This document shows positions 788 through 45,679 of a DNA stretch of 64,000 bases, in pieces. The DNA lies in contig CAZYOA010000002.1 in assembly GCA_964648665.1 (NCBI GenBank), positions 75,002 through 139,001 on the forward strand. The letters run 5' to 3'. Under the pieces are notes generated by a model. It was given only the letters and a program-made list of their open reading frames with translations, was not told the origin of the DNA and made no database searches. Each line of letters opens with the position of its first letter. The first letter of the stretch is position 1. Origin of the DNA: an uncultured Planctomycetales bacterium. Its GTDB lineage: Bacteria > Omnitrophota > Gorgyraeia > Zapsychrales > Aceulaceae. The translations under genes and the position numbers were made by a program.

Positions 788-911
788 TGCGCTTAACGCT
801 TTCATACAAAGAACGAAATTTCTTATCCTTAGAAAAGATAGCACATAATACTTACAATGTAAGGGGTTAAAGCTATTTTTATGAAAGCGCTTTCTTTTTT
901 TAGAATAATTT

Positions 912-947
912 TATAGAAAAAGGCCGGGTTAAAATCTAACCCGGCCC
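912..947 (-). terminator. Rho-independent terminator (GC-rich hairpin + U-tract) after the gene relic
   Basis: Minus strand: GGCCGGGUU-AGAUUUU-AACCCGGCC followed by UUUUUCUAUAAAA. The stem is 9 bp and perfect (922-930 / 938-946). Confidence 0.65.
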
Positions 948-1082
948 AAATTATATATTCTTTAAGAATCTGCTGAATTGTTAAACTGTAATTTTCAGAG
1001 ACTTTCTTTGTAATTATCCTATGTAGAAATCTTTATTTTAACATTCTTCTAATTTTTATGATTACTTCCTGCCCTCTATATT

Positions 1083-1265
1083 TTAATCAATATCAATATA
1101 ATCATTTTTCTTCATAGAAAACAAATACGTTCGACCGGCCTCAAATTGTCCAATTTCATCAATCCAGACACCATCAACTTTTTCAATATATTTTTCACCC
1201 TGTATATCCTCGACATGCCAAATAGCATCATTATCTGGGTCAATCAATTCAGCTATTGTATCCAT
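1083..1265 (-). pseudogene. Relic of the C-terminal domain of a subtilase-type paralogue (60 codons)
   Basis: MDTIAELIDPDNDAIWHVEDIQGEKYIEKVDGVWIDEIGQFEAGRTYLFSMKKNDYIDID matches the last 60 residues of the 1476-aa protein at 5856-10286 in 53 of 60 positions (counted by eye). The frame stays open upstream to about 1400 with decayed similarity (ESFYAGLQRPDGNA vs ELFSGYNFIGFLADKNA). There is no other start and no SD, and it lies directly after the upstream gene's terminator. Confidence 0.7.
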
Positions 1266-1520: not shown

Positions 1521-4500
1521 TCATTGATCCGTTGAAGTTCCGATAAAATTCTGCTGTATGTCATTTTGAATATTAGAGATATTTAAAATCGAAGGTTCAA
1601 AGGTGTGTCCCGGAGCTTGGGGAGTTAATGTTATATTTGAACCTGGGTAGGCCAGGTATGCATAAAATGTTCCAGACAAAAAAACCTCACCAGTTCCTCC
1701 GGTTGCGCTTAAACTGATACCCGGAATAGCGAAGTAATTATTTGTTATAGTTCCTGAAACCATGTAAGCTTGAAGGGGTAAATTGCAAGAAGAAGTAACT
1801 TTAACATGATAGCCTTTGCCGGGTTTCAAAGATCCGATTTCATTAATCGATTGGCCATTTACTAGGCTAAGGGAATTATTATCTTCATCAACAGCTTGCA
1901 CAAAAACATCAGAGTCAATTAAAGGCTGAAATATCGCAGCAGCATCTATTTCATTTATTAATGGAAATCCAATAATATTCCATCCCTCGTTTAGAGTTAA
2001 AATTGTTTCATTTGGATCCAATGGAGCTTGATTACCGGCTATAGAAAAATTGACATTAGAATTCATCTTAATCTGATATCCTTCATTTATGTTCATTTCT
2101 CCAATAGTGTCAATATTGTAATCTGGCCAAATTACGCCTATATGATCATCTTTAATAATTTCAACTTGATTAATAATAGGATTAAGAATATTCGCTAAAC
2201 TCATATCATCGCATACTATGTTAAAAGAAATTAAATTCCACCCTTCTTTTAACTCAAAAAATTGAGAAGAATCGTAGGCACTAAAGTTTTGAATAACATT
2301 TTCTGGGTTAGCTTGAAGGATTGCGCTTTCCGGATCAAATATATAATCTTCAAAATTGGGTGTAACTGTCCAAGTTGTACTCCATGTCGAATTACCGGGA
2401 AGATCGAAAGAATAATATCCCTGGTTATTAGTTGTTGCATGAAATTGCCGAGAATAATTAGGGCTAGTTGCAATAACGGAAACATATTTTAAAGGTTGAC
2501 CATTCTTCAAGATAAATCCAGAAATCCGAAAAGCCAGTGTCACACAAACCTCGACCAATTTTTTATTTTCTGCATTCAGTTCTCCGTCAAAAACATTAAC
2601 TAACAAATCATAGGAACCTGTCTCTAAAGCTTTATTTGTGGTTATCGCTCCAGTGCTAGAATCAATTGCAAAAAACTCTTCTTCATTGCCTGATTCAAAA
2701 AAGTAAGTTAAATCTTGATATATTCCATCATCAAGAGCCTCTACATCAAAAACGTAACTGCCGATGTTTGCTAAAGTAGTCATATGCTTGAAACCTGTAA
2801 GTGTATCAAAATATGGAGGATCGTTGACTAGCTTTACTGTAATTATCATAGATTCAGAATCTTCTAAAATAGGTGTGCCATTATCCGAAACATTAAATGT
2901 TATCGAATGATCACCTGTTTGATTAAAATTTGGTGTCCAGCTAAATATTTGAGTTTCAGTGTTAAAAGTTGCACCTTCAGGTAAATCGTTTGCTGAAAAT
3001 ATTAAAATATCCTCAGAATTTGGATCAGTTGCTGATAGCGCAAATTCAATTGTATTTTCAGCCATGCATCCCTTGTTGCCAATAGGGCTTAGTATTGGTC
3101 GACTATTAAATTCAGAGAAATTGAAACGATATTCAGGGTCTCCCAATAAATTTGTGGTTAAATATACATATCTATAGCACTCATCCATTGCACTCGAAAT
3201 TAGTCCATTATTCTTTTCATGACTATAAGAATTTAACCTGCCAAGTGACTTTTCCGCAGGACCGCTAACATTGTTAAATGCTCCATCCCAAAACCATCTA
3301 CCAAATGTTTGAGATGCTCCATTTGTTGAATAAGCAGAAAACCATCCAAAGCGACTATTCATAACTGTTGCAAAAGCTCCTGTTATCGGTGAAGAAGTAA
3401 GCAATTTTTCTGAGATCGAATCAGTGTTGAGAGTCGTTGTGTAGGGATTTTCATTGTCAAAAGCTCCTGAATAGCATCCGTGCGAATAAATGAATATTGG
3501 TCTTTGATTGTCTAAATCCGAAACATCATCTAAGCTCATTTTCATGACCATTGTATTAGTGGCGTGGCCTGTGTGGTTAATATAGAATGCCCCTTCATTA
3601 ATTCTTGTCATTACTTCATCCATATTCCATTGATATTCAGGGGGGCTGTTTGGTGATCCTGCGGGAGGAGTATCGCAAAGCATATCAACTTCTTCTGGGT
3701 AATATGCTTCAATAAATCCAGAAGTTCCAGAGGGAATAGATCCAAATTTAATTTCTTCTATTTCAGCGATTGCGTATTTATATATTCCATAGTAAAGTCC
3801 TGCATATTCTCCTAACATTAAAGGATCTAAGCGTTCATTATTTGGTTGAGCGAGAATAGTTTTTTGAACAAAATTATCAGCTTCGGTTATACTATCTACA
3901 GGCGCTCGTCCAACAAAAACATCTGAAAAAAGATCAATGTAAATATTGATATCGTCAATTTCCATAAAAGAATTATTATTGTTTGAATCGAATCCTCCGT
4001 CTAGGTTTGAATAGTACAAATCAGATGGGATCTCTGTTTGTCCAAAAGCTGCAGGACAAGTCCCTAAATATCTAACTGGTACAATAGGTAGCTCTGTTTG
4101 TCCTCCTGCCAATGATTTATCCGCATCTCCACCAAGTAAAACGTATTCTGTAGAAAGTTCTTGATAGGCGTATCGAATATAATTTCTTATTTTTGCTGCC
4201 TTATCATTAAATTGATTAAATGATCCGCAAGTGTCTCCCCAATTATAAGGACCCGTGCAACTATAATCAGAGTCATCGTAAATATCTTCTACTGTGACGA
4301 CACAAGCTGAGATCGGATTTGTAAGTCTACTTTCTTTGTAATCGGCAAACACCTGAAAAGAAAGTGCAAGATTTTCATCTGTTATGATGAGGTATTGGCA
4401 TTCCTCTCTTGATGGATCCATAGGGTTGCGATCTATCGGATAACTATCTAAGATATATGATTTAATTTCTCTTTGATTTTTCGGTAAGTTTTCTAAAGCC

Positions 4501-5378
4501 GTGCTTTTATCAACTATTTTAGAATTTTCCTTTTTGGCATTTTGTTCATTGGTATTGGCTGTAATATCTGATAAAAATTTATCTAGAATTATTTCTCTGT
4601 CTGTCTGCTTTCCTCGATATCCATGTTCGATAGGCGCAGCTTTTGGTTTTAAAGTTATAGTTATGGTTTTATAATATGAAATTTTGCCATTTTCTGGAAT
4701 ATATTCAATTGGGCATAAGTTAAATGTATAAAAAACAAATCCTCTGTCGACTTGTTTGGCAGGGTTCGTATATGTTCGTTCAGGATATTTATTTTTTGAT
4801 AGATAAATCATTTCATTAGGCATTGCGGATGAAACATCGAAGCCCGCATCGATTAATTTTTGTTCCGGTAGAATAGGAAGCTGCTTCTCTCCATAACTGA
4901 GCTTATGTTCACTGGAGAGCGTTACGCGCTCGCCAAGAGTAATGGTGTAGCTGTCCAGTTTTGTGGCAAACGGTAAAAGAACTTTTGCGTATCGAATCGG
5001 AATTTCTGGTTTTCCTTCTTCGCTTTGAATTTGAGTCGCTGGCATGCTAATTTTATTATAACCATTTTCAAGAGGAATAAAAGTTGGTTCATCAAAAGTG
5101 TATACAATGGTAATTGTCTCACTCTTTCCGGTTTTTTTAGGAATTCTTGAAAGATCTAAAAGATTTTTTAATGGATCAATGGACGATTTTTCTTCATCTT
5201 TTATATATTCCTCAAATGGCAAGATTTTTTCAGATTGCTCAGTTTTTTCAGATTTAGATGCCAAATTGCGACTAAAGGCGCTTGTTGCTTTTCTTGTCTG
5301 TGATAAAACTTGATTTGGCGCTAAAAAGCTTAAAATTATGAGCAACGCTAAACATTTGGTTGATAAATTATTTTTCAT
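1521..5378 (-). CDS. Exported multidomain cysteine peptidase, C25 (gingipain)-like, with cadherin-like / Ig-like modules and two C-terminal GWN repeats
   Basis: Signal peptide MKNNLSTKCLALLIILSFLAPNQVLSQ. Clan-CD His/Cys context INHTGHATNT ... RPIFIYSHGCYSGAFD resembles the C25 NYxGHG ... ACxxGxF pattern. Cadherin/dystroglycan-type modules: SATDPNSEDILIFSANDLPEGATFN..FSWTPN and FFAIDSSTGAITTNKALETGSYDLLVNVFDG. CarboxypepD_reg-like module: ISGFILKNGQPLKYV..TNNQGYYSF. GGGAG SD precedes the ATG. Confidence 0.6.
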   Translation of the reverse strand: MKNNLSTKCLALLIILSFLAPNQVLSQTRKATSAFSRNLASKSEKTEQSEKILPFEEYIKDEEKSSIDPLKNLLDLSRIPKKTGKSETITIVYTFDEPTFIPLENGYNKISMPATQIQSEEGKPEIPIRYAKVLLPFATKLDSYTITLGERVTLSSEHKLSYGEKQLPILPEQKLIDAGFDVSSAMPNEMIYLSKNKYPERTYTNPAKQVDRGFVFYTFNLCPIEYIPENGKISYYKTITITLKPKAAPIEHGYRGKQTDREIILDKFLSDITANTNEQNAKKENSKIVDKSTALENLPKNQREIKSYILDSYPIDRNPMDPSREECQYLIITDENLALSFQVFADYKESRLTNPISACVVTVEDIYDDSDYSCTGPYNWGDTCGSFNQFNDKAAKIRNYIRYAYQELSTEYVLLGGDADKSLAGGQTELPIVPVRYLGTCPAAFGQTEIPSDLYYSNLDGGFDSNNNNSFMEIDDINIYIDLFSDVFVGRAPVDSITEADNFVQKTILAQPNNERLDPLMLGEYAGLYYGIYKYAIAEIEEIKFGSIPSGTSGFIEAYYPEEVDMLCDTPPAGSPNSPPEYQWNMDEVMTRINEGAFYINHTGHATNTMVMKMSLDDVSDLDNQRPIFIYSHGCYSGAFDNENPYTTTLNTDSISEKLLTSSPITGAFATVMNSRFGWFSAYSTNGASQTFGRWFWDGAFNNVSGPAEKSLGRLNSYSHEKNNGLISSAMDECYRYVYLTTNLLGDPEYRFNFSEFNSRPILSPIGNKGCMAENTIEFALSATDPNSEDILIFSANDLPEGATFNTETQIFSWTPNFNQTGDHSITFNVSDNGTPILEDSESMIITVKLVNDPPYFDTLTGFKHMTTLANIGSYVFDVEALDDGIYQDLTYFFESGNEEEFFAIDSSTGAITTNKALETGSYDLLVNVFDGELNAENKKLVEVCVTLAFRISGFILKNGQPLKYVSVIATSPNYSRQFHATTNNQGYYSFDLPGNSTWSTTWTVTPNFEDYIFDPESAILQANPENVIQNFSAYDSSQFFELKEGWNLISFNIVCDDMSLANILNPIINQVEIIKDDHIGVIWPDYNIDTIGEMNINEGYQIKMNSNVNFSIAGNQAPLDPNETILTLNEGWNIIGFPLINEIDAAAIFQPLIDSDVFVQAVDEDNNSLSLVNGQSINEIGSLKPGKGYHVKVTSSCNLPLQAYMVSGTITNNYFAIPGISLSATGGTGEVFLSGTFYAYLAYPGSNITLTPQAPGHTFEPSILNISNIQNDIQQNFIGTSTDQ

Positions 5379-5404
5379 GCCATTCTCCCTTTAAAATTTA
5401 TTTA

Positions 5405-5543
5405 TCAATAAAAAATCCTTATTCTCGATAAACCGAAAATAAGGATATATTTTTCCTTTCGGTAGCCTCAGCCCTCTATGTGCTTGCATAGAGCTGAACA
5501 GCTTTGCGTCCTTGTCTCACAACAAGTTTGCCTTTATCGAGAA
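5405..5543 (-). promoter_or_regulatory. c-di-GMP-I (GEMM-I)-like riboswitch, copy B: aptamer ~5455-5543, intrinsic terminator ~5405-5446
   Basis: Minus-strand read: UUCUCGAUAAAGGCAAA-CUUGUU-GUGA-GACAAG-GACGCAAAGC-UGUU-CAGCUCUAUG-CAAGCA-CAUAGAGGGCUG-AGGCUACCGAAAGG. This is followed by AUCCUUAUU-(14 nt)-AAUAAGGAU-UUUUUUAUU, a GGGAG SD and the ATG at 5378. Confidence 0.75.
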
Positions 5544-5659
5544 AATAAAAAAATATTTTATAAAAGAACATGTATTGTTTCTAATTTAAGTATATCTTAT
5601 AAATTTACAAAAACAATGGATAGGCAAGATTTTATGAAAGCGTTTTCTTTTTTTATGAG

Positions 5660-5702
5660 TTTTTATAAAAAAATAAGTCGGGTTAAGAATTTTAACCCGG
5701 CC
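5660..5702 (-). terminator. Rho-independent terminator after the S8 subtilase gene
   Basis: Minus strand: GCCGGGUUAA-AAUUC-UUAACCCGAC (one G-U pair), followed by UUAUUUUUUUAUAAAAA. Confidence 0.6.
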
Positions 5703-5855
5703 CAAATTACATATTTTTTTTAAAAATCTACTGAATCGTTAAGTTGCAATTCTCATCGACTTTTACAGCTATCTCCAAGCAAAAAATTGTTATTTTAATG
5801 TTCTTTTGATTTTATGACTGTTTCTTGCCTTCTATCTTTTTAAAAGAAATTCATT

Positions 5856-8800
5856 TTAATCAATATCAATGTAATCTGTTTTTTTCATAGAAAATAAATA
5901 TGCTCGACCAGCTTCAAACTGTCCGATTCCATCAATCCAGACACCATCAACTTTTTCAATGTATTTTTCACCTTGCACATCCTCAACATGCCACAGAGAA
6001 TCATTGTCAGGATCGATTAGCCCGGCTATGGTATCCATCGCATTTTTATCTGCTAAAAATCCAATAAAGTTATAACCTGAAAAAAGTTCAACATTTGTTT
6101 GTCCCAAGTACAAAGTTCCTGCAAGTGTCATGGTCGTAGCAGAATTCAACTGGATTACAACACCATTTCCTGGGCTTAAAGGTTCCGTAAAATTATTTAC
6201 TCCCGAACCTGGATTAAAGAAGTTATAATTTCGGTCATAAGCCATCTGCAAATTTCCCTCTGCCACTAATGGTGCTAGCAAATCTTCTATTAGCATACTT
6301 TCGGCTTGAACTGTTGGAGCAAAAAAATTCATACCCGCATCAAATGTCAAATTTTGTGTAATAATGGCCACTTCGTAGCGATAAATCAAATCAAATGCAT
6401 TTGAGACTTTTACTTGATAACCTTTTCCCGGCTGCATTTGTCCAATTGTGTTGATGTTCGTTTCCGGCCAATAGACATGTCCTTGCCCATCTTGAACGAC
6501 AATAATATCCTCTTGATGTCCTGCAAAGACATCTTCTATATTAAAAGGTTGATCCAGCGGATACCCAATCATTTGCCACCCTGGAGACAATGTAACAGTA
6601 GTAGGTAAAGATACAGGATTAGCCACCAAAGAAAGAGTGGCTTGCTCATTGACTTTAACTTGATAGCCTTCCTTGACATCAATTTCGCCAATCGTATTGA
6701 TTCCATATTCTGGCCAAAAAACATGTCCTGAGTCACCCTTGATAATAACAAGGTTCCCTTGAGAAATAAGCGGCGCAAAAATACTCTCAACCGACATATT
6801 TACTGGTTCGACATTAAAAGAAATCATATTCCATCCAGCATTAAAATGTATCTCTTGGGAAACAGCCGACATGCCTGTGGAGTAATTCTGAACAATATCC
6901 TCATTGACGGATGTGTAATATATTGGCGTGAGTGGATTAAAAGTGTAGCCTTCTTTGAATGTTTCTACTGTTCCAGACCAGTCCTGTTGAACAACAAAAC
7001 GATATGTTCCATCAGCTCCTGTGGTAATAGGTGTTATATTGGGGTCGTTGGTAGTCACCAAAACCCCTTCCAAAGGGGCCCCATTTTCTGAAACAACACC
7101 TTGAATATTATATCGGGAAAGAATAAATGCATTTCCCGAGCCGAAAAAGTTTCCTAATCCATAAGCATTTCCAATGAGCATTTTACTCTCTGATAGCGCA
7201 ACTTGAGTACCAAACGAACCCAATTCGTTCTCAGGAGGAACAATCCGAGTTGTCTCTGTCTCTGGCCATGCCCCAGATGAATTACGGGTATACAAATAAG
7301 TTGCATTTCCTAAGGACCCTCCGTAAGACCCTACAAGAATTATGTCATCTTCTATTGCAACAGATCGACCAAAACATCCACCTTGTATACCATCGCTGGG
7401 TAGAATCTTGCGTGTTTCATTCTCGGGCCAGTTACCATCGGAATTCTCAACAAAAATATAAGCTGCTCCTAAATTTGAAGCAATAGAATCATCTGTGTGA
7501 GCTCCTACGATGGCGGTATTTCCAGATAAAGAAACTTGGGCTCCAAATGAACTTTGAGAACTACCGTCACTTGGAAGTATTTTTTGTTCTTCTTCCCATA
7601 AGGCAGTGTTTTCGTTTAATTTAAAAATATAAGCAGCTCCAGCATTGGTTCCGTTTGTGTCGTCGTTAAAATCTCCGATAACAAGCGTATCTTCTTGAGT
7701 TGAAATTGATGTTCCAAATTGATTACTATTCTTGCTGTCATTTGGAAGTATTATGCTATTAGCAATGGGAGGAAATGTACCTTGAGCATTTCGTTTAAAT
7801 ACATAAACAGCTCCTGTTGAAGCGCCAGATATAGATGAGTTTCCATCTCCAATAAAAAGTGTATCTTCTATTAAAAAAACAGAACCTCCAAAATGAAAAC
7901 TAGCTTTTTGTTGATTGTTCCAATTTATTCTTTGTGTATAGGTTTCTGGCCACGTACCGTTTAGGTTTTGTTCATAAATATAAACATAAGAAAAGCTTCC
8001 GACAATAATGGTGTTATTTGAAGCACTGACAGATAATCCATAAACAGTCGCCTCTGGATTAGGATTTACTAATGCCTTGCTTTCAAAGTGAGGCCAATTG
8101 CCATCTTCATCCTTGGAATATATATAGGCGCTACCGAAATAATTATTTGTAGAAGCGCAGCCTATAACAGCCTTATCTCCTTGTATAGCTATTTGATAAA
8201 ATCCAAACCCACTACCCGAAGAAACATCAGATCCAATTATTTTTCCGTTTTCCCAATTGTTAACAACTCTTTTGTAATCCTCGTAAACATCACCAGCCTG
8301 ACTGGAAACTGACAGCTTCAAGTATAGTGGTGTTGCTTGCTCCAAGACATTAAGCGTTGCTAAAATAGGATATTCTATTTCACCCCCAGTTCCTGCCTCA
8401 GGGTATTTCTCGCCAAATGTGATATTATCTGCAACCATCCAAGGCCCCTCTAGAGATAAAGCATATTCCACTGTATAAGAGTTAAAAGACTCGCCGTAAG
8501 CAACACCTCTTATTTCAATAATTTCATTTTCAAAATATTGCTTAAAATTTTTCGGAGAAAATATTTTTGCCGCTAATGGCGTTGAAACATCTAAAGCTGC
8601 ATCTGCATTTAACATTCCATGCCCAAATGTTTCATCAAATCCTGAATCGCTAAAATTAACAGCTGAAAATCTTAGAGCAGATCGCATTTGCTCAGGAGTA
8701 AATTCAGGATGCAAAGCCCTCATTAAAGCCAATGTGCCAGCTACATGCGGAGCCGCCATAGATGTTCCATTTGATCGATAATAAATATCGTCTACAATGT

Positions 8801-10286
8801 GTTCTCCATTTTCATAAAAATCAGTATTTCTTGCTCTTAAAGATAGGATTTCAACTCCGGGAGCGGTAACATCAACCTTCATCCCAAAATTTGAAAAGTC
8901 AGCTTTTTCAGAATTAGAATCAATCGCCGCGACTGCGATAACGCTCTGCAGATTCGCTGGCATAAAAGCACTTGTTTCAAAATCGCTATTGCCCGCACTT
9001 GCAATATTCACACATCCACTCGCTTGAGCAAGGGCAAATGTATCTTCAAGAATTTGGGAGTATCCTCGCCCAGACCAAGAATTGTTTAATAGATCAGCAC
9101 CATTTTCAACAGCAAAATATATGGCTGAAGCGAGATCATCCTCATAGCCGTCACCTTGTGAATCTAGTCCTTTGATTGCCATAATTTCTGCTAAAGGAGC
9201 AACTCCAATGATGCCTATTCCATTTTCTTTTGCCGCGATTGTTCCTGCGCAATGCGTTCCATGTCCGTGATCATCCATAGGATCTGTGTCTTGATTAACA
9301 AAATCATATCCGTATTCATTTTGATCGTTCTGCCACATGTTTTCGAAAATATCAGGATGAGTGTAATCTACGCCAGAATCAATAACAGCAACAATGACAC
9401 CTTGACCCTTTGATTTTGCCCAGGCACCATTATCTTGCAATGGATCTCCCGTATGAAGAAAGTCTGGTGTGAGGCCATACATATCTCTATAGCTATTGCC
9501 CCAGCTACCAGAGGATGAATAATAAGGATCATCTGGTTCATAAAAAGCATAATATTTCTTAACATAATCAACAAATTCAACATTGTCATCTGATTCATAC
9601 ACTGCTTTTATTTGTTCAATATTGAAAGATTTGTTGTTAAATTCCATAACAAAAATAGAAGAAAGTCTGTGAAGATATTTTACCTGAAGATCAGCATTTG
9701 CGCTTTGTGAGCGATTATAAAATCGTTTATTCATATTTATAACTTTTTCTGTGAGCTCAAGCTCTTTCTCTTTTTCAAAATCAAGAGCTATCTTAGAAGT
9801 TAAAGGGCCTGTAAAAGAATCAATTGAATGTTTTAAATCTAAATCAATTAAAGGCTTTATTTCTTTAAGGTCGTATTTCTTATTTAAATTATCCAAATCA
9901 CTATTGCCTGTAATCTGAGAAAATCCATTCTTTTGACTTGCAAGTTTCTCAGCAACAACAGAAAGCCCACTTCCCTCTTTAAAACGGATAAATAATCGAT
10001 TGTCTCTATACTCAACTGTGTCTGGCGCTTTCATTACAGCAGGAGTTTTGCCAATTTTATTATAGCTATTTTCTTTTTCTTGCTGATGTTTTAATAATTC
10101 ATGAAATTCTTTAAGGTGTAGACTAGATTCAAAATTATCCTTAAGAGGCTTAAAAGATAATTCTTTAATAGAAAACTTGCTTTGTCCGTTTGCCAAAACA
10201 AGCTCAGGTAAAAAGCAAGCTCCTAAGATAAAGATAGTTGCTGTTAAGCAAAGAAATATTGTTATTGCATTTCTTTTATATTGCAT
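5856..10286 (-). CDS. Exported S8 subtilisin-family serine protease fused to a 7-blade FG-GAP-like propeller, a CarboxypepD_reg-like module and four C-terminal GWN-type repeats
   Basis: N-terminal hydrophobic signal or anchor: MQYKRNAITIFLCLTATIFILGA. Catalytic triad motifs: VAVIDSGVDYTHPD, HGHGTHCAGTIAA, GTSMAAPHVAGT. Seven repeats of type FGxSVxxxxxxxxVGxxxxxxxxxxGAAYIFxxxxxGxWPE. Confidence 0.85.
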   Translation of the reverse strand: MQYKRNAITIFLCLTATIFILGACFLPELVLANGQSKFSIKELSFKPLKDNFESSLHLKEFHELLKHQQEKENSYNKIGKTPAVMKAPDTVEYRDNRLFIRFKEGSGLSVVAEKLASQKNGFSQITGNSDLDNLNKKYDLKEIKPLIDLDLKHSIDSFTGPLTSKIALDFEKEKELELTEKVINMNKRFYNRSQSANADLQVKYLHRLSSIFVMEFNNKSFNIEQIKAVYESDDNVEFVDYVKKYYAFYEPDDPYYSSSGSWGNSYRDMYGLTPDFLHTGDPLQDNGAWAKSKGQGVIVAVIDSGVDYTHPDIFENMWQNDQNEYGYDFVNQDTDPMDDHGHGTHCAGTIAAKENGIGIIGVAPLAEIMAIKGLDSQGDGYEDDLASAIYFAVENGADLLNNSWSGRGYSQILEDTFALAQASGCVNIASAGNSDFETSAFMPANLQSVIAVAAIDSNSEKADFSNFGMKVDVTAPGVEILSLRARNTDFYENGEHIVDDIYYRSNGTSMAAPHVAGTLALMRALHPEFTPEQMRSALRFSAVNFSDSGFDETFGHGMLNADAALDVSTPLAAKIFSPKNFKQYFENEIIEIRGVAYGESFNSYTVEYALSLEGPWMVADNITFGEKYPEAGTGGEIEYPILATLNVLEQATPLYLKLSVSSQAGDVYEDYKRVVNNWENGKIIGSDVSSGSGFGFYQIAIQGDKAVIGCASTNNYFGSAYIYSKDEDGNWPHFESKALVNPNPEATVYGLSVSASNNTIIVGSFSYVYIYEQNLNGTWPETYTQRINWNNQQKASFHFGGSVFLIEDTLFIGDGNSSISGASTGAVYVFKRNAQGTFPPIANSIILPNDSKNSNQFGTSISTQEDTLVIGDFNDDTNGTNAGAAYIFKLNENTALWEEEQKILPSDGSSQSSFGAQVSLSGNTAIVGAHTDDSIASNLGAAYIFVENSDGNWPENETRKILPSDGIQGGCFGRSVAIEDDIILVGSYGGSLGNATYLYTRNSSGAWPETETTRIVPPENELGSFGTQVALSESKMLIGNAYGLGNFFGSGNAFILSRYNIQGVVSENGAPLEGVLVTTNDPNITPITTGADGTYRFVVQQDWSGTVETFKEGYTFNPLTPIYYTSVNEDIVQNYSTGMSAVSQEIHFNAGWNMISFNVEPVNMSVESIFAPLISQGNLVIIKGDSGHVFWPEYGINTIGEIDVKEGYQVKVNEQATLSLVANPVSLPTTVTLSPGWQMIGYPLDQPFNIEDVFAGHQEDIIVVQDGQGHVYWPETNINTIGQMQPGKGYQVKVSNAFDLIYRYEVAIITQNLTFDAGMNFFAPTVQAESMLIEDLLAPLVAEGNLQMAYDRNYNFFNPGSGVNNFTEPLSPGNGVVIQLNSATTMTLAGTLYLGQTNVELFSGYNFIGFLADKNAMDTIAGLIDPDNDSLWHVEDVQGEKYIEKVDGVWIDGIGQFEAGRAYLFSMKKTDYIDID

Positions 10287-38929: not shown

Positions 38930-41900
38930 CTACGAATTTTCCTTGTTTGCTACTAATTCTTGAGAAAGCGCGATATCTTCATTAGTGTTTGGTTCATTTT
39001 CATCTAGCCCAAGCAATTGATAAATATTTGTCATCGGTGTAATGCTTATGCTTGCAGGAATCAATCCTGGTAAATCTTGAAGATTCATTCCTTGCCACTC
39101 AACCGGAACGTTAAACTCTATCGACGACGACCCCCTCTTTTCAATATCCAAATATTCAGCATTAAAATCAATACCCCCAACATTAGAAGAAGCTGTTGCA
39201 GAGGCTTGAGAAGAAGCCATGTGTCCTTGAGCCAAAACAACTTCTTGATCTTGCTTCAAAATACTTGGTATCCTTTTCTTGTCTGCAATTTCATTTCTAA
39301 TCGTATAGCTTCCTCTTTGACCGCTTAAGAATTGATCAAGATTATCTCTTTGTTTTTGATTCTTTAAGAAAATAAAGATTTTATTTTTCCCCACTCTTTC
39401 ATAGTCAAATTTCATTTTATTAATAGCATTAATCACATATTTCCTTGAATCAATTTCTAGTCCGAACATATCGTCCCGATAGCTCAATGCATCAGAAAGA
39501 TTATAACGTAAGTCTTCTGCAGTTATGTCATCGCCAATATTTTGACTTTCAATATAAATTTTAGCCATATGCACAAGGCGATTAAAACTAGCTTGGTTCA
39601 TGTTGTCTAAACAATTTTCATCATTTTCATTATAAAAAATTAAATTTTTCTTTACTTCATTTAAAGACTTTATTCGACCAGAAGGTTGATCGTAACTAGC
39701 CATATAAATTTTTTCGAATGCTTTGCCTAAGGATCCTGGCTCAACAATAATCCGGCCATTTTTTTGAGTTTTTCCTGATTGCATAATAATCTGCTCAACC
39801 CCAACACCTTTAATTCCTGCATTATCCCCTTTATAAGACTGAACAATTTCCTGCATTAGAAATTTCAAGATTTTAATATCCGACACAATCTCTCGTTCGA
39901 TACTGTCTCCAAACTTTTGCTTAATTTGAGAAATTTGATTATTAACAATATCAGCATAAAGAACATCTTTTTTCCCTATCGAGATCTCGATTTTCGTCTC
40001 ATATCTACTAGAATCGTTTGATTTTAAAAGAAAACTGATTAAATTTGTACTTGGAGTATGATTCCTTTTATATCTAATCCCTACACATCGTGAATGCGAA
40101 CGAAACGCATTTAATATTTTCTCTCCAGTTTCAATATCTGATTTATCAGCTGAAACAAAAATATCAATATCGTATTTTCCTGGTAAATCCATGTCTCTTG
40201 AAGTTGATCCTTGATTTACAATATCGGTTTTCAAATCTAAATCATTCAATTTTGAGAATATAAAATCACTAGCCTCTTCTCGCCTTTGATTTTCTTTAAA
40301 AAACAATTTTAAACGATTTGATAAATCTGCAATCGAAACTAAAGAATTTTTTTGACTTCTCTGCACTTTTGCTTGAACGCTTAAGCTTATCTTTAGTGCG
40401 CTTAGATCAATATCTGAATAATCCCCTTCTTCAGTGGTGTCTTTTCGAAGTTCTTGGACATCTTCAAAATAATCTAAAAGCGTTTTTCCCTCTACAATCC
40501 ATGGATGCTCAATAAAATCAGCGACTGACTCAAGGCTTTCAGGATCTAATTCTTCTCCTTCATACTTTTGACCAATTTGCACATCAGGAATTATCCTCCG
40601 AGTAGATATACTTTTTCCACTAACTGTCGTAGCTTTTCTATGATATTTACGAATAACCTCAATATTTTCACTCTCATTAAGCAATGCTTGCTGAATGATT
40701 TCTTTATTATCTTGATTTTCCTTGTAATCTGCGCTAATCAAATCAAAAAATCTTTTTGATCCGTCTGTTTGCATCTGTCCAAGCAAAAGTTTTAGATAGT
40801 CACTCTTAAGCCCTGTTTTCTTAAAATCTTTTAAAATATTGATTTGCTGATCAAGAAGAGCTTGAAGATTATTAAAATCTTTTTTATTTATTTCTCCTCG
40901 TTGAAGCGCTTTTAAAATATAAAAAATATTATCTTTTGCAATTCTCTCATATTTTTGCCATCGTAAAATCTTTAAAATATATGAATTTGCTGTTTGCAAC
41001 CCAAAATCGTCTTTCTTTTTCCTCAAATCGCTTTGAAGAAAATCTCCTGCCAAAATACTTCTTTTTCGGGCATATTCTTCTAGCGGATTTCTCCCACGCT
41101 TAGCGTCATAAAACGCTAAAGCAACATTGCGATCAGGTTCTCTTTGTCCTTTAAGTAAAACATTGTCAAATTCATGCAAAGCTTTCGGCCCAAGCCCGCC
41201 TTTAAGGGCATCTTTAGCTTCTCCTCCTTTACGCAAATAATGGAACAAAGCTGATGTTAGGGCATACGATAAATAATTTGCCTCGATATGATCCTGCTCT
41301 GCATAAGCGCGATAAGCACTAGAGATTGTGTTTAAATATTTTGGAACTTTATGTCCGTTAAATTCTTTAAGTTCATTAATTTCTTTAAACCTTTCCAAGG
41401 TCTCAGAAATTTTCTTTTCGCCAAAAATATCAATCAAGAAATTATTAATATTTTCTTCATTCTTTAAAAAATATGAGCCAATCTTACTCTCCAAACTACT
41501 CATTCCATTCGGTACTTTCTTGCTCCCCATATGCTCTTCAACCAAACTTGTTGATAAGCTGACAAGGCTATTTAAAAACACTTCGGATATAATTTGAAGG
41601 ATATATTGAAAATCCTCTTCACTATGTTCAGTCATTTTTCTTAAAGTTGCTGCTGCCGACACTTTTTCTATAGAAGAATCAATATTTGTAGCAGAATAAA
41701 CAAGGGATGACAGATGTATATACTTCTTAAGATGCTCTCTCTTGTCTGCAGCATTTTCATCCAAAATACCTTTGACTCCGTTTCGTCCAATCCATGATAA
41801 AATATGAATAGCTGATTCAGAGTTTTTTAATGCAGATTCTTTGAGAAATTGGTTAATAACAAAAGCAAGGCTATATATATCATTAATATTTTCTATCCAC

Positions 41901-44900
41901 CCTTTATGAGCTAAACATTCAAAAAGAACAATTGATAAAAAGGGATCATTTTTTTGCAATAACGGCTTCATTGTATCAATAACTTTATTAAAATTGGAAC
42001 GCATTTCCGAGACAGGTTCGTTTAATAAAAATTTTAAGAAAACACTTAATCCTGAATAATTTTTTCGGTAAACTTCCAGATTCTTATAAATTTCTAATTT
42101 ATCTATAATCTTACGGAACATGTCTTGGTTTTCTTTAATTGCAATACCAAGATCCAAGTTCGAATTTTTTATAACATCAAAGATTTGATCTTGATCATCG
42201 TTTTCTGCGTTTAAAGAAGCTAAAATAAAATCTGGAAGAAATCTTTGATTATTTTTAAAAGATGTTTTTATTGAAGAAAAGAGAGCACTTTTAGCCTCTT
42301 GAGATTTAATCTGAAGAGTTTTTTTGATAACAATTGGAAAAAGATTTGGATTTCGAGAAAGTATCTCATTAACGAAATCAGGCGAAGATAGAATTAAGGA
42401 ATCGAAATAATTAGGATACGTAGATAAAATTTTACCGATACTTAAAATCAACGCTTTCCTAGCTTTACTTCTCTTGTTCTGCACAAGAGGTGCATATTTT
42501 AAATAAGAAATAAATTCTTCCTCTGTAAACTTTAAGTTTGGATTAGAACCAAAAGAAAAATTAACAACTCTTGCCAAACTTTCTACATCGCTATACACAT
42601 CATTTACAAATTTATTCGGATCAACAAGATTCTTCATGGCATTAAAAAGATGCTCAAACTGAGACTGTGTAACAACCGTGTTCGATCCCGAAGAATCATC
42701 TTCACTGAGAGAAATAGAGTGCAGTAAAAATGAAGTGTCTGAATCTGAAAAAGTTTTTGTCAATAATATTCTGTATACTTGACCAGAGAATTCAGCATTA
42801 ATCCCATAAGGCAAAGAACGTAATGATTTTATTAAAAATTTCTTCATCTTATTTGAAGAAGCATTTTCCAGATGATTTAACAGCTCTTCGCTCACACTTG
42901 CGTTCCCTAAGGCCGAAGCAAGCTCTGATAATATAGAATCTTCTATCTCTCGATTCTCAACCTCTTTTAAAAAAAACTCTAATGAAGCGGAATCTTTGCC
43001 TAAAAATTTGCCAAGGCCTGAAATAAAATTAGTTTTGGAGGTATAACCATTCGTATCAAGCCTGTCGTATGTTGAAGTAACTTTGCAAAGATCAAGTATT
43101 TGAGACATTGTTATTTCAATGTTGTCATCTTTAAGGCTGCTCCCTATCGCCTCGATTAAATTATTTTGAATTGCGCGTGTTCGATGAAAACTTAAATCGT
43201 TAAAATAGGGATTATCATAATTCGTTTTTGTCATATTCGGAATCATTGATAACATATCCTCAGCTAAGTCAGGATTATTTGAAAGAATAAATCCAAGAAA
43301 CCACGACATCTCGTATCTTTTCCAGACATCCGTTCTTTCAAAAATAACATCAGATTTTAAAATATTAGTTAAATCTTCTTTTTTTAGTTTAATTTCTTTT
43401 TTACGTGAAAGGGAGTCCCACAGTGAACTAATTAGTGCCCTTCCTCCTATTCCTTTCGCTTGACTAATCTTTTTTATAACAATTGGGAGAAAATCCAAAT
43501 TAGCATTTATTGCTGAAGTAAGGCACCGAGATAAAAATTCTTCAACGTCGCTTGCGCTATCTTTTTGAATACCCAAATAATTCTGTGTTCTATTAAATAT
43601 TTCTGGATTACGAATCATGGCAGATCCTAACATGGCTTCAACAAATGTATTACCAGCATTTGGTTTGTAAATATTAATGTGATCAATAACATATTCAATA
43701 GAATCAAGACTTAGCTCAAAGTTTTTATCTTGTAAAAGAATTCTAGTCAAAGGATCAAAAATCTCACTCCCTGCTTCATTATTATCAGAATAATCTACAG
43801 TCTTGTTTAATAAATAATTATGCTTTAACGTAAGTTTATCATTTCTTAAATCTAATATTATTTTAAGCCGAGAACCTTCGGGTCCATGAAATATCATTGT
43901 TTGGTTGTCAAGCTCGACTCTAACGTTTTTCATTTTTGATAAATACTCTAAGAAATTCTTATAGAATCTTGCTGTCGCTTCATCCCGATTAATGACGTAT
44001 CCAGCACTTCCTAAAATTAATAACGCCAAAGATCCACTTAAATATTTAAGAATTCCTTTTGATTCTTTTGCAGTTTCAAGATACCTCTTAACAATATTTC
44101 TTTGAGACTCTATATACGCTGTATCATTGACAAGATTAGAATCCACATAAAGAATATAACCCTTTTCTCCCTGATCGAATACAGATCGCCCTTCGTGCTC
44201 TAACAATCCTTGTACAGGAATAACGTGCACCTTAACATCTTCGTTATCAATTCTATAAGTATGTATTGGATATTTCGCAACAAGATCAGAAGCCAGAGCA
44301 GCGCCGTCCTCCTTTACAGGAGCCTCTCTAAGCTCTTCGGGCACGTTGTTGTAAATATAGTTATAAATACCGAGATTTCCCGTTTGGCTAATGGTGTTCT
44401 CGGAAAGAGATGGCACAGCTGTATTACTAGCTGATGCAGGAGATTTATTGAATGTATCTGGCAGTCTATGCGATTCAGGGTCAAGCTCAGAAGTAGCTGA
44501 TGTTGTTTTCGGCACAGCCAATACGACTGAAGCTCTAAACCCAAGACCAACGATAACGGATTGAGCTGTATTTTTTAGAGCTCTCAAAGGTCTTTTAATA
44601 ATTGAAGACGAAACCTTGCTCCCCTCAAAACCACCTGAGAAATATTTACGGGTTACATATTTCCTTAAATACGGATCATATTCGGTTTTTAGATAATTAA
44701 CGACACCTTTTTCATGAGCAGCAAGATATTGATTATAAATATTATCAACATTAACAGGACGCTCATCTGGCATCTGAATACCAGCAACCTTATTTTTATC
44801 CGCATAAACTTTTGTAATAATCGAATTGCGCAAAGCTTGCTTGTACCAAGTCGCCAAAACCATGGCATGAAATATCTGACGTAATTGAGCAAAATTCTTA

Positions 44901-45679
44901 CCCTCATTAACCTCTTTTTCTAATAAAGGAATAATGACTTCTTTGGCAATCGACGCGCTTAAGTTATTATCAGCTCGTGTATTCGCTTGTCTTTCTTTTT
45001 CTTGATCTGAATTATCTTTTTTTGTGTCTTTTTTATTTTCAAGGGCTAAATAATCCTGCTCCATCATAACTTTCAAATAACTATCAGTTAGAAAAACCTT
45101 GTCTCGATCTTCATAAATCACTGCCTTTTGAGGAACAATCCAAACCTTGTTAAACGTATCAATAGGAATATTTGTTGTTCCGTATTCCTCATATGCCTTT
45201 TTATATACTTTTCCCCAGAATTCTTTTCCAAAATCATTTTCTGGATAAATCAAAGAAGACATAATTTGCTTTAGAATATAATCTTGAGCTAGGAGATCTA
45301 CACCCATTTCAGTCTGGCCTAAAGCATTAGGAATAATACGATTTTCTTCATAAGGAGATAAATTGACCCACAAATCGTTTTCTGGGATAGTTAAGGCAGC
45401 TAAGAAATATTTAACAATTTTTTCTGATTCTTTCTTTAGCTGATCCCCTTGAAGCTTTGTATTTCCAGAATCAACAATAAAATCAAATTTAAGAGAGTTT
45501 TCAGGATAAACGCGCATTCCACGAAGAATGGCTGGGGTAAAAGCCGGGCTTAAATTAACCATTGCCCCTGGATGAGGAAGCCCTATAACACCTTGAGCGT
45601 AGGCTTGAGATGGGACAACAACAGTTGCAAAAAAACAGATGAGTATTAAAATCGATATCGTTTTATTAAAAAATTTCAA
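38930..45679 (-). CDS. Giant (2249 aa) orphan protein: signal peptide, N-terminal exported domain, one candidate TM helix, long helical-repeat region, Pol-beta-type nucleotidyltransferase core, C-terminal GGIDFN module
   Basis: Uninterrupted 6.75-kb ORF. TTG start with GGGAGAG SD 5 nt upstream. MKFFNKTISILILICFFATVVVPSQAYAQG is signal-peptide-like. Hydrophobic LSGSLALLILGSAGYVI lies at about aa 550. NTase motif NQGSTSRDMDLPGKYDIDIFV lies at about aa 1820-1842. Confidence 0.85.
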   Translation of the reverse strand: MKFFNKTISILILICFFATVVVPSQAYAQGVIGLPHPGAMVNLSPAFTPAILRGMRVYPENSLKFDFIVDSGNTKLQGDQLKKESEKIVKYFLAALTIPENDLWVNLSPYEENRIIPNALGQTEMGVDLLAQDYILKQIMSSLIYPENDFGKEFWGKVYKKAYEEYGTTNIPIDTFNKVWIVPQKAVIYEDRDKVFLTDSYLKVMMEQDYLALENKKDTKKDNSDQEKERQANTRADNNLSASIAKEVIIPLLEKEVNEGKNFAQLRQIFHAMVLATWYKQALRNSIITKVYADKNKVAGIQMPDERPVNVDNIYNQYLAAHEKGVVNYLKTEYDPYLRKYVTRKYFSGGFEGSKVSSSIIKRPLRALKNTAQSVIVGLGFRASVVLAVPKTTSATSELDPESHRLPDTFNKSPASASNTAVPSLSENTISQTGNLGIYNYIYNNVPEELREAPVKEDGAALASDLVAKYPIHTYRIDNEDVKVHVIPVQGLLEHEGRSVFDQGEKGYILYVDSNLVNDTAYIESQRNIVKRYLETAKESKGILKYLSGSLALLILGSAGYVINRDEATARFYKNFLEYLSKMKNVRVELDNQTMIFHGPEGSRLKIILDLRNDKLTLKHNYLLNKTVDYSDNNEAGSEIFDPLTRILLQDKNFELSLDSIEYVIDHINIYKPNAGNTFVEAMLGSAMIRNPEIFNRTQNYLGIQKDSASDVEEFLSRCLTSAINANLDFLPIVIKKISQAKGIGGRALISSLWDSLSRKKEIKLKKEDLTNILKSDVIFERTDVWKRYEMSWFLGFILSNNPDLAEDMLSMIPNMTKTNYDNPYFNDLSFHRTRAIQNNLIEAIGSSLKDDNIEITMSQILDLCKVTSTYDRLDTNGYTSKTNFISGLGKFLGKDSASLEFFLKEVENREIEDSILSELASALGNASVSEELLNHLENASSNKMKKFLIKSLRSLPYGINAEFSGQVYRILLTKTFSDSDTSFLLHSISLSEDDSSGSNTVVTQSQFEHLFNAMKNLVDPNKFVNDVYSDVESLARVVNFSFGSNPNLKFTEEEFISYLKYAPLVQNKRSKARKALILSIGKILSTYPNYFDSLILSSPDFVNEILSRNPNLFPIVIKKTLQIKSQEAKSALFSSIKTSFKNNQRFLPDFILASLNAENDDQDQIFDVIKNSNLDLGIAIKENQDMFRKIIDKLEIYKNLEVYRKNYSGLSVFLKFLLNEPVSEMRSNFNKVIDTMKPLLQKNDPFLSIVLFECLAHKGWIENINDIYSLAFVINQFLKESALKNSESAIHILSWIGRNGVKGILDENAADKREHLKKYIHLSSLVYSATNIDSSIEKVSAAATLRKMTEHSEEDFQYILQIISEVFLNSLVSLSTSLVEEHMGSKKVPNGMSSLESKIGSYFLKNEENINNFLIDIFGEKKISETLERFKEINELKEFNGHKVPKYLNTISSAYRAYAEQDHIEANYLSYALTSALFHYLRKGGEAKDALKGGLGPKALHEFDNVLLKGQREPDRNVALAFYDAKRGRNPLEEYARKRSILAGDFLQSDLRKKKDDFGLQTANSYILKILRWQKYERIAKDNIFYILKALQRGEINKKDFNNLQALLDQQINILKDFKKTGLKSDYLKLLLGQMQTDGSKRFFDLISADYKENQDNKEIIQQALLNESENIEVIRKYHRKATTVSGKSISTRRIIPDVQIGQKYEGEELDPESLESVADFIEHPWIVEGKTLLDYFEDVQELRKDTTEEGDYSDIDLSALKISLSVQAKVQRSQKNSLVSIADLSNRLKLFFKENQRREEASDFIFSKLNDLDLKTDIVNQGSTSRDMDLPGKYDIDIFVSADKSDIETGEKILNAFRSHSRCVGIRYKRNHTPSTNLISFLLKSNDSSRYETKIEISIGKKDVLYADIVNNQISQIKQKFGDSIEREIVSDIKILKFLMQEIVQSYKGDNAGIKGVGVEQIIMQSGKTQKNGRIIVEPGSLGKAFEKIYMASYDQPSGRIKSLNEVKKNLIFYNENDENCLDNMNQASFNRLVHMAKIYIESQNIGDDITAEDLRYNLSDALSYRDDMFGLEIDSRKYVINAINKMKFDYERVGKNKIFIFLKNQKQRDNLDQFLSGQRGSYTIRNEIADKKRIPSILKQDQEVVLAQGHMASSQASATASSNVGGIDFNAEYLDIEKRGSSSIEFNVPVEWQGMNLQDLPGLIPASISITPMTNIYQLLGLDENEPNTNEDIALSQELVANKENS

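Follow-up and report, generated by a model that had tools for sequence, protein, structure and literature searches.

A 64-kb stretch of DNA (contig CAZYOA010000002.1, positions 75,002 to 139,001; its full 64,000 nucleotides are called the window here) carries three consecutive minus-strand genes for exported proteins: an S8 (subtilase) protease, a C25-like (gingipain-family) peptidase, and a beta-helix protein. All three proteins have a signal-peptide-like N terminus, and all three share a cassette in which a CarboxypepD_reg-like beta-sandwich is followed by two adjacent modules of a repeat family with a conserved GWN motif (Table 1). These two modules, of types A and B, form the A-B pair that is our subject.

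Three adjacent proteins with an A-B pair

In the S8 protease, a signal peptide is followed by Peptidase_S8 (Pfam, amino acids [aa] 294-557, E 1e-58), five FG-GAP repeats (five stretches matching FG-GAP_2), a CarboxypepD_reg-like domain, and two A-B pairs, and the protein ends at module 4, directly before the stop codon at 5856-5858. The C25-like peptidase has a signal peptide, a propeptide, Peptidase_C25 (aa 329-751, E 1e-47), He_PIG and cadherin-like immunoglobulin (Ig) domains, a CarboxypepD_reg domain, one A-B pair, and a CarboxypepD_reg-like tail. This tail of 81 aa aligns with the CarboxypepD_reg regions of the S8 and C25-like proteins at E 0.004 and 0.014 (BLASTP), so the C25 pair is not terminal. 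The third gene lies directly downstream of the C25 gene; the part for its C terminus lies beyond the start of the window, and the full gene was read on an overlapping public contig (L001, 5532-8048). It encodes a protein of 838 aa that ends with two CarboxypepD_reg-like domains, an A-B pair (aa 677-838, E 2e-62 with the pair profile), and a stop codon. The S8 signal peptide (10286-10185, minus strand) contains a lipobox-like ILGAC, seen by eye in the sequence, because of which the S8 protease may be a lipoprotein.

Table 1. Features of the locus, in window coordinates. modA and modB are the profiles of type A and type B modules; ORF, open reading frame.
Feature	Position	Strand	Residues and evidence
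S8 (subtilase) protease gene	5856..10286	minus	1476 aa; ORF list and Pfam
CarboxypepD_reg-like beta-sandwich before first S8 pair	6861..7112	minus	aa 1059-1142; weak Pfam match, S8/C25 alignment, cassette comparison
S8 module 1, type A, canonical (GWNMISF ... WP ... INTIG ... GYQVKV)	6606..6860	minus	aa 1143-1227; modA E 6.6e-37
S8 module 2, type B, canonical (GWQMIGY ... WP ... INTIG ... PGKGYQVKV)	6360..6605	minus	aa 1228-1309; modB E 8e-35
S8 module 3, type A, degenerate (GMNFFAP)	6102..6359	minus	aa 1310-1395; modA E 3.4e-15
S8 module 4, type B, degenerate (GYNFIGF)	5859..6101	minus	aa 1396-1476; modB E 2.5e-15
C25-like (gingipain-family) peptidase gene	1521..5378	minus	1285 aa; ORF list and Pfam
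CarboxypepD_reg-like domain before C25 pair	2268..2531	minus	aa 950-1037; Pfam and alignment to S8 cassette
C25 module 1, type A, canonical	2010..2267	minus	aa 1038-1123; modA E 3.9e-32
C25 module 2, type B, canonical	1767..2009	minus	aa 1124-1204; modB E 1.9e-26
C25 C-terminal 81 aa, second weak CarboxypepD_reg-like beta-sandwich	1524..1766	minus	BLASTP (see text)
Third exported protein, N-terminal part, DUF1565 beta-helix	1..636	minus	first 212 codons of 838; Pfam DUF1565
60-codon open remnant, type B (module-4-like)	1083..1265	minus	88% aa identity to S8 aa 1417-1476; P0001
Duplicated 3' flank of the remnant, with terminator-like hairpin (947-921)	877..1082	minus	homologous to S8 downstream flank

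The original prediction described one repeat family common to both proteases, with four modules in the S8 protein and two in the C25-like protein. Both of the peptides that it quoted are present, positions 5859-6860 correspond to S8 aa 1143-1476, and the C25 modules lie at 1767-2267. The motif G-[WMY]-[NQ]-x-[IF]-[SGA]-[FYP] occurs at aa 1151, 1236, 1318, and 1404 of the S8 protease and at aa 1046 and 1132 of the C25-like protein, and the modules have a period of 81-86 aa instead of the ~75 aa first proposed. S8 aa 1059-1345 and C25 aa 950-1247 are 34% identical (E 2e-37), and since this alignment starts at the CarboxypepD_reg-like domain, the shared unit includes that domain upstream of the pair. 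Weak matches to CarboxypepD_reg (PF13620) are limited to this upstream domain (S8 aa 1062-1099 and C25 aa 952-995) and do not extend to the modules.

Type A and type B profiles were built from 252 pair units without any S8 or C25 module sequence, all of them from other organisms except a 60-aa relic encoded in the window (P0001). These independent profiles recognized all six modules (E 1e-11 to 1e-37) in the order A-B-A-B in the S8 protease and A-B in the C25-like protein; the S8 protease thus has two pairs and the C25-like protein one. A six-frame scan of the whole window matched modules only in the two proteases and in the 60-codon relic. S8 modules 1 and 2 and both C25 modules have the conserved set of positions (Gly-Trp-Asn/Ser, Ser or Tyr, Lys-Asp/Asn, Gly, Pro, Asn-x-Ile-Gly, and Gly-Tyr). 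S8 modules 3 and 4 have it only in part: module 3 has Met for the conserved Trp and Val for the conserved Tyr, module 4 has Tyr for the Trp, and Lys is replaced by Tyr or Glu. The pair profile nevertheless matched modules 3 and 4 together at E 2e-39.

The working unit is the A-B pair of ~165 aa and not the single module of ~83 aa, because exactly two adjacent modules are present in 138 of the 157 top family proteins, because A and B profiles alternate, and because AlphaFold2 predicts the pair as one compact body. The remaining proteins have mostly four, six, or ten modules, up to the five pairs of one giant protein annotated as a Cloacimonadota PKD-domain protein (P0009), and the gap between partners is 0-2 aa (median 2). 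In the AlphaFold2 model of S8 modules 1 and 2 (aa 1143-1309, alignment of 49 rows), this body is alpha/beta, with a predicted local distance difference test (pLDDT) score of 96.7 and a predicted template modeling (pTM) score of 0.90; each half is a beta-hairpin, then short helices, then four to six short strands.

Cassettes of the C25-like and 838-aa proteins are 47% identical, that of the S8 protease is 34-37% identical to either, and the two S8 pairs are 29% identical to each other. Since the three cassettes share only 34-47% identity, there is no sign of recent recombination. The original prediction had taken the 60-codon relic as a mark of a recombinogenic domain; its history argues otherwise. 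The relic is intact and has an ATG start, and public assemblies annotate it as a gene. It belongs to a duplication of 403 nt (BLASTN of 877-1279 against 5630-6052: 76% identity, E 3e-86) that spans the last 60-65 S8 codons and ~200 nt of the 3' flank, including the terminator hairpin, and the comparison points to one old local duplication and truncation of a gene 3' end together with its terminator. Its coding part differs from the S8 end at 30 nucleotides, distributed 5/3/22 by codon position (chi-square ~22, 2 degrees of freedom); 17 codons differ only synonymously and 7 nonsynonymously. Because the substitutions lie mainly at third codon positions, they indicate purifying selection for most of the relic's divergence. 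Instead of a decayed pseudogene, the relic resembles the end of a gene that was working until recently or that is still expressed. Terminator-like hairpins (GGGCCGGGTT-loop-AACCCGGCC and a T run, minus strand) lie at 1456-1430 after the C25 gene, at 947-921 after the relic, and at 5699-5679 after the S8 gene; the C25 and relic hairpins are near-identical, and the S8 hairpin is related to them. A sigma-70-like promoter match lies upstream of the relic at 1391-1363 (minus strand).

An S8 gene followed by a C25 gene, in synteny with the window, is also found in a different organism (L122; GCA_036722365.1, contig DAIMJH010000034.1, 2610-5763 and 7510-15766; GC content 44.6%). Its S8 orthologue (52% identity) has no GWN pair, so the cassette has been gained or lost by domain shuffling. 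In the same contig, the S8-like ORF (2610-4568) and an ORF for a cadherin-like protein with a terminal pair (4447-5763, P0004) overlap in different frames. They look like one gene split by a frameshift, by which P0004 is probably fused to the S8-like ORF. Close counterparts of the degenerate S8 terminal pair are the C termini of P0004 and of P0011, a C25 peptidase with two pairs.

The other genes of the window are housekeeping genes (ABC transporter, gshA/gshB, aconitase, Rnf, leuC, thiC, fumC, and ilvH). Among them is a 2249-aa ORF (38930-45679, minus strand) that matched no Pfam family at E<=1e-4.

Distribution and partners of the pair family

An exhaustive search with the six-module profile over cluster representatives at 50% identity found 10,556 clusters at E<=1e-3 and 4,918 at E<=1e-10. 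Other searches found far less: a word-indexed search returned only the relic for the six-module alignment, nothing for a 49-sequence pair alignment, and seven relatives for a single 334-aa query, and a single-protein scan of the genome collection matched no relative. Species-representative genomes were therefore scanned for W-[NS] ... N-x-I-G-x3-P-G-x-G-Y by means of a degenerate DNA pattern. This yielded at least 120 pattern-matched loci, of which at least 113 were confirmed by the pair profile, both figures being lower bounds; the seven of the 120 listed loci that failed confirmation include cyanobacterial and clostridial records. Among the matches listed, the confirmed loci belong almost entirely to the Fibrobacterota-Chlorobiota-Bacteroidota (FCB) group. 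They include Flavobacteriales, Bacteroidales, Cryomorphaceae, Rhodothermales (with the cultured Salinivenus lutea DBO), and Marinilabiliales (Saccharicrinis sp. FJH62), as well as Kapaibacterium/Ignavibacteriota, Fibrobacterota, KSB1, Cloacimonadota, Fidelibacterota, and Chlorobiota, and many genomes have several loci.

That the repeat marks an exported subset of proteins, a point that the original prediction raised as a check, is supported by the third gene of the locus, by the many paralogues per genome in relatives, and by the N termini of family members. A signal-peptide-like N terminus was present in 83 of 114 long family proteins versus 1 of 124 control windows. The pair co-occurs with Por_Secre_tail, FlgD_ig, beta-helix, PKD, Fib_succ_major, C25, S8, trypsin, GH81, endonuclease I, CBM6, and CBM35 domains. 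These data establish the pair as a stock block in the C-terminal stalk of exported multidomain FCB proteins. NCBIfam models for M6-like and M36 metalloproteases dependent on a type IX secretion system (T9SS) matched 11 and 5 members, respectively; since the scores are far below the cut-offs, these matches may reflect a shared C-terminal domain. Short sequences with little beyond a signal peptide and the pair were also seen (P0024 and P0025), and these may be truncated.

The pair beside the T9SS sorting domain and domain X

The original prediction placed the repeat where sorting or cell-surface anchoring domains usually sit, at the C terminus of both proteases. This is true of the S8 protease, in which the second pair is terminal, and not of the C25-like protein with its 81-aa domain after the pair. 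For the family, the length of sequence between the last pair and the genuine stop codon was measured in the 113 confirmed genomic ORFs listed: it was 0-5 aa in 30, ~65-71 aa in 9, ~170-180 aa in 9, ~200-265 aa in 55, and another length in 10. The pair is therefore the true C terminus, as in the S8 protease, in 30 of the 113 listed copies, while 73 (the 65-71, 170-180, and 200-265 aa classes) are followed by a tail. Of the tails sampled, the first five, which belong to the 200-265 aa class, have Por_Secre_tail or FlgD_ig (Pfam) at their ends, domains of the T9SS C-terminal type (for background on the T9SS C-terminal domain, see PMC4804311 and PMC8545088). Three sampled tails of the shorter classes had no Pfam match, and their conserved ends can be read as short T9SS domains.

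In most copies with a tail, the tail opens with a second conserved domain, here called X. X is an all-beta domain of ~115 aa that lies ahead of the T9SS domain (for example, P0003 aa 260-400; also L058, L072, and L095), with the motif N-M-T ... G-D-E-I-G-V-F ... G-x-L-V-G ... T-x-W-G-D-D ... D-G ... G-E; it had no Pfam match and no Foldseek neighbour in the PDB. The commonest layout is thus a catalytic or adhesive head, an A-B pair, X, and a T9SS C-terminal domain. In the 157 top proteins, X is present in 68, as pair then X in 35, X on both sides of the pair in 25, and X then pair in 8; the other 89 have the pair only. Several proteins that end with a pair carry X upstream. A downstream X or T9SS domain was also sought after the terminal pairs of relatives, and only one locus (L079) has an X-domain ORF beside the end of the pair, in another frame, which looks like a frameshift artefact; another (L044), with fragmentary pair ORFs and a weak tail match, may be one too. 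Compared with this layout, the cassette of the window is a variant, with a CarboxypepD_reg-like sandwich and then the A-B pair, no X, and no T9SS domain, to which the S8 protease adds its degenerate terminal pair.

The terminal copies raise the question of whether a pair, especially of the degenerate module-3-and-4 subtype, could replace the T9SS C-terminal domain as a sorting or surface-anchoring signal. A stop codon within 0-5 aa in 30 of 113 listed copies, the terminal position in the S8 protease, the 838-aa protein, P0004, and P0011, and the confinement of almost all of the matches listed to T9SS-bearing phyla are consistent with this. However, most copies lie upstream of a T9SS domain, are internal, or occur several times in one protein, the C25 pair has another domain after it, and the L122 S8 orthologue lacks the pair altogether. 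The fold is also different: T9SS C-terminal domains are all-beta, Ig-like, and ~70-100 aa long, whereas the pair has ~165 aa, about twice that size, with helices predicted in each half. T9SS profiles do not match the pair; the type A models (Por_Secre_tail, PF18962, and TIGR04183) matched nothing in the S8 protease, the C25-like protein, or the relic, while PF18962 does match the tails of relatives. We consider a sorting role of terminal pairs improbable. Because 73 of 113 copies lie upstream of a T9SS domain and because the pair is also internal and present up to five times per protein, the pair is a neighbour of the sorting signal and not the signal itself, contrary to the position first proposed for it.

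The association of the pair with X is open to a second interpretation, in which the two dock in the manner of cohesin and dockerin, such that enzymes with only a pair are recruited in trans to anchored proteins with X and a T9SS domain. X and the pair occur tightly associated in both orders (35, 25, and 8 of 157), and single genomes hold both pair-terminal proteins and proteins with the pair, X, and the T9SS domain. In addition, the AlphaFold2 model of the pair and X of P0003 has a pLDDT of 89.8 and a pTM of 0.88 despite a disordered linker of 30 residues, so that the pair and X are predicted to pack. The predicted contact is intramolecular, though, 89 of the 157 proteins have no X, and none is found in the window, and docking in trans is in our view a long shot.

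Fold comparisons and possible function of the pair

Searches for known relatives agreed with the initial failure to assign the repeat to a named domain. Neither Pfam nor NCBIfam matched S8 aa 1143-1476 or C25 aa 1038-1204, and sequence searches of the PDB returned no credible match, just UFL1/DDRGK1 and spermidine acetyltransferase as noise at E>=0.006. With Foldseek, the model of the pair had no PDB neighbour at E<=1e-3 (best query-normalized template modeling [TM] score, 0.26), and the model of the pair with X had none either (best E 4.7e-3, TM 0.19). A literature search on the motif and on T9SS cargo architecture found nothing on the pair domain; a 2026 paper on lipopolysaccharide-dependent anchoring in Cytophaga is about the C-terminal domain itself and not the GWN module. 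In the viral structure library BFVD, the sole neighbour was A0A8D9C8P8, which comes from an uncultured marine phage and is annotated as a "putative hemin binding protein" (probability 0.99, TM 0.50). It is probably a homologue on a phage or mis-binned contig and would be uninformative on function.

Two candidate relatives were set aside. A resemblance to beta-grasp or SLBB domains, suggested by the order of strands and helices, had no Foldseek or significant Pfam support. DUF6944 (PF22116, function unknown) was the only Pfam model to match three of 49 pair units with a best E as low as 2.9e-6, and its profile of 167 positions has the length of the pair. These matches cover only ~40 profile positions, are restricted to three units of a W-[IV]-N-x-I-G subfamily, include no module of the window, and at best score 27.1 bits, below the cut-off of 32 bits. 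They do not make DUF6944 a named relative, while a remote homology is compatible with such scores; the literature searched has no mention of DUF6944.

Over 253 pair units, the conserved positions are Gln2 (90%), Gly9, Trp10 (97%), Asn/Ser11, Ser14 (97%), Lys41, Asp/Asn42 (96%), Gly45, Pro50, Asn55, Ile57, Gly58, Gly65, and Tyr66 (99%), and they are mirrored in module B (Asn137, 96%). No acidic residue, His, or Cys of the sort expected in catalytic or metal sites is invariant; conservation of Lys and Asp/Asn is 76-96%. The set of Gln, Trp, Asn/Ser, Ser, Lys, Asp/Asn, Asn, and Tyr resembles the residue make-up of sugar-binding sites and is present twice, pseudo-symmetrically. Because these positions are conserved across 253 units and repeated in both halves, we tentatively favour a reading of the pair as a noncatalytic binding or retention module of the cargo stalk. 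Each half would contribute one of two pseudo-equivalent sites, for which its conserved Gln, Trp, Asn/Ser, Ser, Lys, Asp/Asn, Asn-x-Ile-Gly, and Gly-Tyr would provide the residues. The pair would pack onto the neighbouring beta-sandwich and tether the enzyme to a glycan or polymer, either from the cell envelope or from the substrate, and would not itself act as a secretion signal.

Several points weigh against binding or retention. The conserved Trp, Tyr, Gly, and Pro could equally be mere core and turn residues, and the loss of several conserved residues in the second S8 pair is no harder to reconcile with a structural role than with binding. Neither sequence nor Foldseek comparison gave any likeness to a carbohydrate-binding module (CBM) family or to a lectin. 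In addition, the window proteins have no T9SS domain, and a profile of X and the C-terminal domain built from relatives found neither in any frame of the 64-kb window, nor was a T9SS gene found there.

Some of these points suit a pair that is an inert pedestal or folding scaffold, that is, a rigid, ligand-free spacer that projects the head from a membrane-proximal anchor, with a role like that of the Ig-like domain ahead of the C-terminal domain in gingipains. Such a spacer would account for the place of the pair between heads and T9SS domain in most relatives, the rigid packing with X predicted at pTM 0.88, the persistence of degenerate copies with key residues replaced (S8 modules 3 and 4), and the five pairs strung along P0009. 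Yet spacers rarely keep near-invariant polar residues, such as Gln2, Ser14, Asp/Asn42, and Asn137, over thousands of divergent clusters, and a spacer is at odds with the short sequences of signal peptide and pair (P0024 and P0025), unless these are truncated. A purely structural role is possible, though less likely than binding or retention.

Known systems offer partial parallels to the pair. In gingipains such as RgpB, an Ig-like (IgSF) domain precedes the T9SS C-terminal domain. Like it, the pair is a noncatalytic module between protease head and T9SS domain in exported FCB proteins, and C25 peptidases are among its carriers; unlike the all-beta Ig domain, the pair is a predicted alpha/beta body of ~165 aa, with no sequence or Foldseek similarity to it, and the window proteins lack the T9SS domain. 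GW modules of Listeria proteins (InlB and Ami; Pfam SH3_8) are tandem repeats at the C terminus, ~80 aa each and containing a Gly-Trp dipeptide, which keep proteins noncovalently on the cell surface. Module length, C-terminal tandem arrangement, the conserved Gly-Trp, and a possible retention role are similar, by analogy only: the pair has no SH3_8/GW Pfam match at E<=1, has predicted helices, has no SH3-like Foldseek neighbour, and occurs in Gram-negative phyla, which have no teichoic acids. CBM6, CBM35, and PKD domains resemble the pair in that they accompany many unrelated catalytic domains, co-occur with it, and have a similar palette of aromatic and polar residues. The pair matches no CBM family by profile or fold, however, and obligatory A-B pairing would be unusual for a CBM.

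The pair is found in more than 10,000 protein clusters of Bacteroidota, Fibrobacterota, Ignavibacteriota, KSB1, Cloacimonadota, and related phyla, on proteases, glycosidases, nucleases, and adhesin-like giants. Many of these phyla are the dominant polymer degraders of oceans, sediments, digesters, and guts. An abundant, confidently predicted domain that has neither a curated profile nor a structural neighbour, fixed beside the T9SS sorting domain, is a gap in the annotation of T9SS cargo, and defining the pair and X would improve secretome annotation and provide a marker for a subclass of cargo. If the pair does serve in retention or docking, this would explain how enzymes without a sorting tail stay associated with the cell, and the pair could be used as a new handle in surface display. 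It is unlikely, but conceivable, that the pair and X together make up a surface-assembly system new to T9SS phyla, in which the pair docks onto an envelope glycan or onto X in trans. Enzymes without a T9SS C-terminal domain would then be held on the surface beside covalently anchored cargo, in a Gram-negative counterpart of cohesin-dockerin or GW-module anchoring.

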